This document shows, piece by piece, positions 31,694 through 33,165 of a stretch of DNA of 33,165 bases; position 1 is the first letter of the stretch, and each line of letters starts with the position of its first letter. Source of the DNA: a virus; IMG/VR virus record IMGVR_UViG_3300045988_164547, positions 1 to 33,165 of that record, one strand, 5' to 3'. The position numbers were made by a program, and so were the translations under genes. Below the pieces are notes generated by a model. It saw nothing but the letters and a program-made list of their open reading frames with translations, was not told where the DNA came from and did no database searches.

Positions 31694-33165
31694 ATGCGCT
31701 CAGAGTGGCTTGAGCAGTTACCCGATTATCTTGCCGAGATAATGCAGCAAATGTCGCTTGAAGCAACGGCAATTATCGCAGCACGAATTAACTATATTGG
31801 CAAGGTTAAGAAGAGCGATATACACAAGCTAACCAACGCCTTAGCCTATGCCGGAGCGGATATCAGCGAAATTGAGCGAATAATAGCCCGTTTCACGAAG
31901 AAAAGCGATGCGGAAATAGAGCGTATTTTAACCGAGGTAGCAGCCGAGGACGATTCCTTCGCTAAGATGTATTACGAGGCCAAAGGGCTTGTGCCCAAGA
32001 CCTATATAACAGATGCATATCTGCAAACTGCCCTAACTTCCGTTATAAAACAAACGCAAGAAGCAATCCGCAATTTGTCAAACACTACATCGCTGTTTTA
32101 TCAAATGCCTGACGGCACTTACGCCGACATTCGTTCAACTTATATAAGAGTGATTGACCAAGCTATATATGAAGTACAGAGCGGCAGCATAGATTATCAT
32201 ACCGCAATGAAGCGAGCAATGTTGTCTCTCGGTAAAGGAACGCGCTGTATTGAGTATATGAGCGGATACCACAGACGGCTTGACAGCGCCGTTAGGCAAA
32301 ACATATTAGACGGCACAAAGCAGCTCAATCAAACGGTAATGGACTATCACGGCAAAGCCTTTGGGGCAAACGGCGTCGAACTCACAGCTCACGCTATATC
32401 GGCTCCCGACCATGTCAATGTTCAAGGACACCGCTTTACAAACGAAGAATTTGAAAAAATGCAAAGCGGAATGGACTGCAAAGATATTCAGGGCAGAAAA
32501 TACAAAGGCTTCCCTCGAAAGATTACAGAATGGAACTGTAAACACTTTGCAATCCCCGTTATTGTTGATATAGGCTCTCCCGCTTATACAGACGAACAGC
32601 TTGAAGAACTGAAAAAATCAAGCACGGCCAAATATGACGATACCCAAAAAGCCAGGGCTATGGAAACACGCTTGAGAACGCTTAAGGAACAGAAAAACGC
32701 CCTTTTGGAATCGGGAGATGAAGCAGGCGCCAAACAAATTCAAAAAAAAATAACAGCTCAGCAGAGGGTTTACAGAGAATTCTGCACCCAAAAAGGCATA
32801 CATAGAGATTATGTTCGAGAGAATGTGCCAAAGTACCAAAAATCCATTACAAAAGAACCTAAGCTCTTAAAATCCAATCCTTTTTCAGATGTTACGCAAG
32901 AGTATTGCGATACCGCCAAGCCTGGTGTCGGTAAGGTCATTTTGGAAGAAGGGTATAAAAAAGCACACCACCAACAAGAGATTGAAACAGCCGAATGGCT
33001 TGTTAAAGAATTTGGTGGCGATGTTACACTTCAAAAAGAAATTGACAAACAAAATGTTAGGACATCTGATTATATTTGGCGAGAACGCTTTTGGGAACTA
33101 AAGAATGTTTCTTCGGTCAATAGTGGAGACTATGGTCTTAGAAAAGCGATTTCGCAAATTCAGAG
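31694..33165 (+). CDS. Head morphogenesis / minor capsid protein (MuF, SPP1 gp7 / Minor_capsid_2-like), 5' part. Continues at 1..279 (about 543 aa in total).
   Basis: The ORF is open to the window end and is missing from the supplied track. Core motif ELTAHAISAPDHVNVQGHRF...EWNCKHFAIPV, then a coiled coil, then an extra C-terminal domain. Confidence 0.8.
   Translation, partial: MRSEWLEQLPDYLAEIMQQMSLEATAIIAARINYIGKVKKSDIHKLTNALAYAGADISEIERIIARFTKKSDAEIERILTEVAAEDDSFAKMYYEAKGLVPKTYITDAYLQTALTSVIKQTQEAIRNLSNTTSLFYQMPDGTYADIRSTYIRVIDQAIYEVQSGSIDYHTAMKRAMLSLGKGTRCIEYMSGYHRRLDSAVRQNILDGTKQLNQTVMDYHGKAFGANGVELTAHAISAPDHVNVQGHRFTNEEFEKMQSGMDCKDIQGRKYKGFPRKITEWNCKHFAIPVIVDIGSPAYTDEQLEELKKSSTAKYDDTQKARAMETRLRTLKEQKNALLESGDEAGAKQIQKKITAQQRVYREFCTQKGIHRDYVRENVPKYQKSITKEPKLLKSNPFSDVTQEYCDTAKPGVGKVILEEGYKKAHHQQEIETAEWLVKEFGGDVTLQKEIDKQNVRTSDYIWRERFWELKNVSSVNSGDYGLRKAISQIQ
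33047..33165. repeat. Right copy of the exact 119-bp terminal direct repeat
   Basis: Identical to 1-119. Both copies lie in the same reading frame of the MuF gene. Confidence 0.95.

Follow-up and report, generated by a model that had tools for sequence, protein, structure and literature searches.

The MuF toxins are the phage-borne branch of the polymorphic toxins, which are defined as pairs of a toxin and an immunity protein; how producers survive MuF toxins, and how these toxins are used, is an open question in the field. When MuF toxins were defined, a small immunity open reading frame (ORF) was found immediately downstream in 89.4% of cases, a typical but not strictly defining feature (Jamet et al. 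2017, PMC5576092). Here, we examined a MuF gene that carries a toxin-type C-terminal domain and lacks such an ORF, and asked what stands in its place. The gene lies on a circular phage record, the complete contig IMGVR_UViG_3300045988_164547 of IMG/VR, whose whole length of 33,165 nucleotides is called the window below. The new part of the answer is a conserved small-RNA unit that runs convergently to the toxin gene, within a 246-bp gap that was supposedly empty. The MuF gene and its domains lie as follows.

31682..33046, plus strand: MuF (minor head protein) gene, 5' part, up to the circularization point and continuing at base 1 (ORF joining; Pfam PF06152, E 1.9e-53)
1..279, plus strand: MuF gene, 3' part, residues 456-547 and the TGA stop codon at 277-279 (ORF joining)
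31703..32785, plus strand: MuF core, Phage_min_cap2 (PF06152), residues 8-368 (Pfam, E 1.9e-53)
32879..33046, plus strand: toxin domain, first part, residues 400-455, with the helix Glu E433 at 32978-32980 (alignment, AlphaFold2 model, fold matches)
1..276, plus strand: toxin domain, second part, residues 456-547, with D463 at 22-24, E472-L-K474 at 49-57, Q492 at 109-111, NPGG at 121-132 and RYKK at 265-276 (alignment, conservation counts)
33047..33165, no strand: exact copy of bases 1-119 (assembly overlap of the circular contig)

Bases 1-119 are identical to 33047-33165, and this 119-bp terminal repeat is an assembly overlap inside the MuF gene. Joined across it, the ORF at 31682..33046 and 1..279 encodes 547 aa, in which a coiled-coil linker separates the MuF core from an extension of 148 aa (residues 400-547, nt 32879-33046 and 1-276) that forms a separate domain. 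An earlier reading of the letters alone (the sequence-only reading) had let the MuF protein continue across a “genome junction” into an extra C-terminal domain. The continuation and the joining of the ORF held; the junction itself is the assembly overlap and not a biological one.

The identity of this domain was reached through its relatives, because the C-terminal pieces of the window's own protein have no Pfam match. The relative P0009, which is 82% identical to the window in the toxin domain, scores 21.7 bits on PF18451 (CdiA_C), and P0019, a VG15-type MuF protein with 34-38% identity there, scores 27.6 bits on the same family, with a cut-off of 26.6; PF18451 was matched at E ≤ 0.01 by 45 of the 55 aligned family members. 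An exhaustive profile search for the domain returned 851 clusters (50% identity level) at E ≤ 0.001, and among the 150 of these 851 that were listed, the proteins were 127-701 aa long and the domain either was C-terminal or lay within ~15 residues of the protein's end. AlphaFold2 was run on a 55-sequence alignment with P0002:400-547, a sequence with a single difference (C409Y) from the window's domain, as the folded sequence. The resulting model had a predicted local distance difference test score (pLDDT) of 95.2, and its order of secondary-structure elements fits the PD-(D/E)xK nuclease superfamily. In a Foldseek search, the sole significant match in the Protein Data Bank (PDB) was 4g6v_A, the CdiA-CT toxin of Burkholderia pseudomallei 1026b (E 5e-4, probability 1.00, template modeling score 0.53/0.58). 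The same chain came first when the model was compared with structure representatives by VIA-align (Z 9.7, root-mean-square deviation 3.5, 118 of 132 residues; next match 7.1), and the list below it was dominated by PD-(D/E)xK nucleases, namely Can2, CdiA-CT E479, PaqCI, NucC, HamA and FokI. Among 152 cluster representatives, E433 is conserved in 149, D463 in 152, Glu or Asp at 472 in 150, K474 in 148 and Q492 in 152, and this near-invariant E433/D463/E472-x-K474/Q492 set reads as an active-site signature under purifying selection.

These results indicate that the extension is very likely a PD-(D/E)xK nuclease-type domain of the PF18451/cd13442 (CdiA-CT Bp1026b) toxin family. It is a predicted nuclease with its catalytic set intact, most likely an RNase acting on tRNA. 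The sequence-only reading had placed the helix Glu, the strand Asp and the E-x-K exactly where the alignment puts them (conserved in 148-152 of 152), had called a nuclease-type toxin on the MuF protein of a temperate phage, and had suggested structure prediction against toxin and nuclease folds as a check; the PF18451 relatives, the conserved residues and the 4g6v_A fold match bear it out. The toxin call is correct but not new, in that a MuF protein fused to cd13442, which is named among the MuF toxin domains, is already published (Jamet et al. 2017). In P0020, a 448-aa relative of the window's MuF protein with 8 member sequences, a frameshift at residue ~429, inside the toxin domain and before the catalytic Glu, truncates the allele, so that a putative loss-of-function variant of the toxin is in circulation.

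The gap between the toxin stop codon and the next protein gene (280-525) holds no plausible protein gene and no ORF with a ribosome-binding site. Two candidates were considered and rejected: a 31-aa ORF at 359..454 on the plus strand has no ribosome-binding site and its frame is broken by a 4-bp indel in the Ruminococcus bromii prophage relatives, and a 38-aa ORF at 389..505 on the minus strand also has no ribosome-binding site. Pfam and PHROGs scans of 44 ORFs of the phage gave no immunity family. Likewise, there is no immunity ORF 3' of the toxin in the R. bromii prophages, in the VG15-type locus L008, in loci L009, L010 and L012, or in the isolated Faecalibacterium phage Aster, which has a class B unit (see below). 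Of 38 IMG/VR loci, nearly all lack one as well, the next gene being that of a scaffold or terminase. The sequence-only reading had therefore described the 246-bp gap correctly as free of protein-coding ORFs but had taken this as unusual; with dozens of relatives alike, a missing immunity ORF is the rule for this domain family. What the gap contains instead is the following predicted unit on the opposite strand.

354..382, minus strand: sigma70-like promoter of the small RNA, TTGACT at 382-377, 17-nt spacer, TATAAT at 359-354 (consensus scan; hexamers conserved in diverged relatives)
272..347, minus strand: predicted ~76-nt class A small RNA, with a 5' hairpin, a terminator hairpin at 304-278 and a U-tract at 276-271, overlapping the toxin stop codon (fold; covariance model R1, 99.4 bits; covariation)

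The start site of the RNA (~347) was predicted from the -10 box. At its other end, the last two Lys codons of the toxin are the template of the terminator U-tract: in the C-terminal R-Y-K-K (window 265-276), which supplies the A-run, K546 and K547 each occur in 112 of 152 representatives, and the RYKK codons may be under a dual constraint on protein and RNA. Among diverged relatives, both promoter hexamers are conserved islands in variable surroundings, and the terminator stem shows compensatory changes. A minus-strand promoter scoring at least 10/12 was present within 230 nt after the stop codon in 12 of 36 distinct toxin loci, as against 0/36 on the plus strand, 1.4% and 1.1% in other windows of the same 36 loci and 1.6% in shuffles. 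On looser inspection, nearly every toxin locus has a TATAAT box (often TGnTATAAT), a hairpin RNA of 46-115 nt and a U-tract at the stop codon; predicted RNA lengths across toxin loci are ~50-110 nt.

At least four unrelated RNA sequence classes accompany the toxin family, with A and B as the main ones. Class A, to which the window belongs, consists of GGUUAGGGG ... CCCUUUACCCC and the terminator; in its alignment 92% of cells are paired and 7 pairs are changed on both sides. Class B has the core hairpin CCUCyGCC-loop-GGyGGGGG, with 100% of 144 cells paired and an invariant U.G pair. The RNA is assigned to the strand opposite the toxin, because its G.U pairs would be C.A mismatches in a transcript of the toxin strand; the minus-strand folds are also more stable than the plus-strand folds. 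An Rfam scan of the gap and 12 related loci gave no match at the RNA unit, and ARAGORN found no tRNA or tmRNA. UUCRANN-like (T-loop-like) loops, considered as possible mimicry of the tRNA T-arm, are present in some class B members but not in others. Some variation was seen among the loci: two tandem class B hairpins lie in one predicted RNA at L024:2930-3044, L239 and L242, and L026:2967-3027 (plus strand), upstream of the scaffold gene, matches the GP20-b cis-regulatory motif of Rfam weakly and below threshold (29.5 bits, E 0.024). In the window, the scaffold-proximal half of the gap (395-525) contains a second small hairpin at 465-480 and shows 100% identity to R. bromii prophages whose sequence is different in other regions; this half may serve the scaffold and capsid genes as a leader or promoter, or may simply be a recent recombination tract.

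Linkage of the RNA to the toxin, for which ~70 loci were covered in all, was examined with two covariance models, R1 for class A and R2 for class B. R1 found an untrained locus (L245) at E 4e-10, where a toxin ORF adjoins the RNA. R2 matches, including those at untrained loci and at the stand-alone toxins L246 and L248, fell on the minus strand at the toxin stop codon only, and R2 had no matches in 22 MuF loci without the toxin. A minus-strand promoter after the MuF stop codon was found in 0/63 distinct toxin-less MuF genes, a modest control, since these genes come from few independent lineages. The RNA goes with the toxin rather than with MuF, because the stand-alone toxin genes P0043 and P0054 carry the class B unit. 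When the search began from the RNA motif, 35 of 74 exact IMG/VR matches adjoined the end of a toxin ORF on the opposite strand, at a distance of 6-11 nt in 33 of the 35 and of -3 and 51 nt in the other two; the remaining exact matches were mostly GC-rich and about as numerous as expected by chance. An independent set comprised 18 bacterial genome loci picked by protein similarity alone, from Oscillospiraceae, Lachnospiraceae, Clostridium, Ruminococcus, Erysipelotrichaceae and Acutalibacteraceae. Class B matched 12 of them and class A 4, all at the stop codon, and the other two have the promoter-hairpin-U-tract layout with a variant hairpin. In a search of five whole genomes (13 Mb), in which a first-look filter left 150 candidates to be scored per genome, the match at the toxin site was the best in each genome; in four of the five it alone reached E ≤ 0.001, and in the fifth its E value was 0.0011. 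One extra weak R2 match from this search (L272) was rejected as an ordinary same-strand terminator with no toxin neighbour.

When the four RNA classes were mapped onto a maximum-likelihood tree of 46 toxin domains, they required 3 changes, as few as four classes allow, compared with 12.2 for shuffled labels. This tree shows that toxin and RNA have been inherited together on different carriers and does not by itself show co-adaptation. The metagenome loci are partly redundant, in that identical tails were collapsed and some close kin were kept. Taken together, these results make it very probable that a real, conserved RNA unit, predicted from promoter to terminator, is linked to the toxin. At one locus (L247:209-664 and downstream), the stand-alone toxin gene is the same as in L246, but directly beyond the U-tract a convergent ABC-transporter gene takes the place of the RNA unit; the locus either holds a toxin copy that lacks its RNA or is an assembly chimera.

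The domain is found on several carriers. Among 80 full-length proteins with the domain, the MuF families were Phage_Mu_F (23), Phage_min_cap2 (21) and VG15 (13), and stand-alone copies lie in bacterial chromosomal contexts (P0043, P0054). The sequence-only reading had held that conservation of the extension in MuF proteins of unrelated phages would speak against a toxin; it is conserved in this way, in three MuF families, and the toxin reading stands, because the domain also occurs stand-alone and is homologous to the CdiA toxins. Between the window and its R. bromii relative P0009, there are 11 differences in the first 399 residues and 26 in the last 148. Synonymous divergence (dS) between them is ~1.0 in codons 446-547 and 0.2 elsewhere, and because the ratio of nonsynonymous to synonymous divergence (dN/dS) in codons 446-547 is 0.2, the divergence there reflects recombination and not decay. 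Nucleotide identity to relatives falls from >90% to 55-80% exactly at codon ~446, and in L085 the drop extends past the stop codon into the RNA unit. By these comparisons, the toxin core behaves as a swappable module.

The explanation that best accounts for the whole, with about an even chance of being right, is a MuF-borne predicted nuclease toxin with the convergent RNA as its antidote or safety catch. MuF proteins are internal head proteins, and the MuF protein of SPP1, gp7, binds to the portal as well as to DNA and has an early role in infection. For this reason the predicted nuclease is probably packaged and delivered into the next cell: going by known MuF biology, MuF would place the toxin domain inside the capsid, and the packaged domain would enter the next host cell along with the DNA. 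Immediately beyond the toxin stop codon, complementarity between the RNA and the late mRNA is complete. In the proposed mechanism, the RNA would have the toxin cistron cleaved and degraded in the 3'-to-5' direction as long as late transcription is merely leaky, for example in a lysogen, and full lytic induction would outrun it. A safety catch or antidote is favoured because the geometry matches that of the type I pairs of Bacillus prophages and of lambda OOP RNA. Taken separately, the antidote role of the RNA falls slightly short of even chances, and that the toxin core and an RNA antidote form one mobile cassette for different carriers (three MuF families, or stand-alone) is a more tentative proposal still. 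A trans target of the RNA inside the MuF mRNA was sought as well and rejected, as an RNAduplex scan gave no signal above shuffled RNAs and no consistent site.

Several points weigh against this explanation. The identity of the domain rests on family transitivity and fold: as a single sequence, the window's own domain has no Pfam match at E ≤ 1, and profile searches of PDB sequences with two family alignments gave chance matches only. The promoter, start site and terminator of the small RNA are sequence predictions, and the toxin-less control is as narrow as stated above. The RNA covers only ~8 nt of the toxin coding sequence, so that antisense action would fall on intercistronic RNA and not on the start codon. 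Furthermore, toxins that are just 35-45% identical are accompanied by class B hairpins of strongly conserved sequence. Because pure cis-antisense pairing needs no such conservation, a protein or other partner may recognize the RNA.

Four other explanations were considered. The one that survives best, although we regard it as unlikely, takes the domain to be an effector that is made from the late operon, injected early and in no need of an antidote, with the RNA as a processing or stoichiometry regulator of the late operon or as an insulator. The toxin gene does lie within the late operon, between the portal and scaffold genes, with the RNA in the MuF-scaffold intercistronic region, and MuF-fused enzymes are proposed as effectors delivered with DNA (PMC5512222). 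This explanation does not account for the RNA unit 3' of stand-alone toxin genes outside any head operon, for the absence of R2 matches from the 22 toxin-less MuF loci and of a minus-strand promoter from all 63 toxin-less MuF genes, or for an RNA class that tracks the toxin tree across carriers. Rather less likely, but the main rival to antisense action, is that the RNA neutralizes the nuclease by direct protein binding, as a type III-like antitoxin or substrate decoy, and not by mRNA pairing. The sequence conservation of the class B hairpin just described, with its fixed G.U pairs, would be explained in this way; the nearest solved relatives are tRNases that recognize structured RNA helices, and the RNA stays with stand-alone toxins. 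Against this stand at least four unrelated RNA classes beside one conserved active site, a convergent layout unlike that of known type III systems, and the restriction of T-loop-like loops to a subset of members. An improbable third explanation places the gene for a conventional protein immunity factor at another site in the phage, such as the lysogeny module. Immunity proteins vary widely and frequently have no family match, several small phage ORFs have no assigned function, and an odd MuF-core-like protein of 324 aa lies between the integrase and repressor genes; nevertheless, the scans of the 44 ORFs gave no immunity family, and the RNA unit is the sole constant companion of the toxin across unrelated phages and stand-alone toxins. 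Finally, it is highly improbable that the domain is a non-toxic structural or DNA-end-binding head module whose toxin-like fold is mere ancestry: its C-terminal position in three MuF families, the missing immunity protein and DNA binding by the MuF protein SPP1 gp7 would suit such a module, but the full catalytic set is strictly conserved, the core is exchanged between near-identical phages in the manner of polymorphic toxin ends, and stand-alone copies occur in bacterial chromosomes.

The neighbourhood of the MuF gene is that of a head-morphogenesis module, in the order terminase, portal, MuF, scaffold and capsid.

30355..31689, plus strand: portal gene, directly upstream of MuF
526..1086, plus strand: scaffold gene, the next protein gene 3' of MuF

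The phage, of the Ruminococcus type, also carries serine recombinase (integrase) and CI-like repressor genes and is therefore taken to be temperate. Near-identical MuF genes sit in prophages on R. bromii contigs, and a locus search seeded with the MuF N-terminus returned near-identical phages only. Between the serine recombinase and CI-like repressor genes, a 324-aa ORF (window 14549-15523, minus strand) has a partial MuF core, matching positions 212-298 of the Phage_min_cap2 profile (E 6.5e-12) with a C..C ... H..C motif present; a second MuF-like protein in the lysogeny module was unexpected. A 309-aa ORF at window 11870-12799 (plus strand) combines Phage_holin_1 (3-79), Peptidase_M23 (118-216) and SH3_3 (260-295) and is apparently a holin-endolysin fusion or a membrane-anchored lysin. 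Upstream of the terminase, window 26221-27255 (plus strand) encodes a ParB_N and DUF4417 protein (E 1e-75), and DUF4417 is also found near the stand-alone toxin gene in locus L246.

The family described here comprises at least 851 sequence clusters and is widespread in phages of gut Clostridia; it has no immunity protein and, nearly throughout, a conserved antisense RNA. We offer the hypothesis that this RNA provides immunity, or a safety catch, for a capsid-delivered nuclease. If true, this would be RNA-based immunity for a toxin of the CdiA-CT type, bridging polymorphic toxin and RNA-antitoxin (type I/III) systems, and it would account for the absence of immunity proteins from an entire clade of MuF toxins. 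If the RNA is unrelated to toxicity, the toxin clade works without cognate immunity, which would favour the injected-effector view of MuF fusions. In addition, at least two undescribed structured RNA families are absent from Rfam, and the case flags a systematic blind spot in ORF-based searches for immunity genes.

Compared with known systems, the window's protein resembles the MuF polymorphic toxins (PMC5576092; Zhang et al. 2012, PMC3482391) in having an N-terminal MuF domain encoded next to the portal gene of a temperate Firmicutes phage and a swappable C-terminal toxin domain common to other toxin families. It differs in that its domain family has a convergent small-RNA unit in place of a downstream immunity ORF; no report linking MuF toxins to an RNA antidote was found in the literature searched. 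In the portion of Iyer et al. 2017 (PMC5512222) considered here, MuF fusions are treated as effectors injected with the DNA and carry PBECR RNase, 2H phosphoesterase, RelA/SpoT and phosphoribosyltransferase (PRTase) domains. The present protein is like these in that its enzymatic domain is fused to MuF in the head module, is predicted to travel in the particle and reach the cell at infection, and calls for no immunity gene, whereas that portion of the source does not mention this PD-(D/E)xK family or its associated RNA.

The best structural match, with a PD-(D/E)xK core in common, is CdiA-CT(II) Bp1026b/CdiI (4G6V). The 1026b CdiA-CT is a Mg-dependent tRNase with the catalytic residues E187, D214, D223 and K242 (contact-dependent growth inhibition toxin review, PMC9086364). 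The spacing of E187/D214/D223 parallels that of E433/D463/E472 here, a correspondence read from spacing and not from superposition. In contrast, sequence identity is only 13-15%, the window's domain has the canonical E-x-K lysine (K474) and an extra conserved N-terminal stretch of ~17 residues, delivery is proposed to occur by the phage capsid and not by type V secretion, and there is no CdiI-like protein here.

As for RNA antitoxins, type III (ToxIN-like) systems use tandem RNA repeats that lie upstream on the same strand and are processed by the toxin, whereas the window's RNA is a single, downstream, convergent unit, with tandem hairpins in a few loci only. The closer likeness is to convergent RNAs at toxin and gene 3' ends. 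Lambda OOP RNA covers the 3' end of cII in the same convergent geometry. In the 3'-overlapping RNA antitoxin pairs of Bacillus prophages, txpA/RatA and bsrG/SR4, RNase III cleaves just past the stop codon (8 nt after it in bsrG/SR4) and the toxin mRNA is degraded (PMC4152353). Compared with these type I systems, whose toxins are membrane peptides of ~30-60 aa, the toxin here is a 148-aa soluble nuclease-type domain of a 547-aa structural protein and lies inside a polycistronic late operon, and the RNA is shorter, with almost no coding overlap. Nevertheless, the window's predicted unit resembles txpA/RatA, bsrG/SR4 and lambda OOP in that it would give a phage-borne convergent RNA with its own promoter and terminator, complementary to its target at and just past the stop codon.

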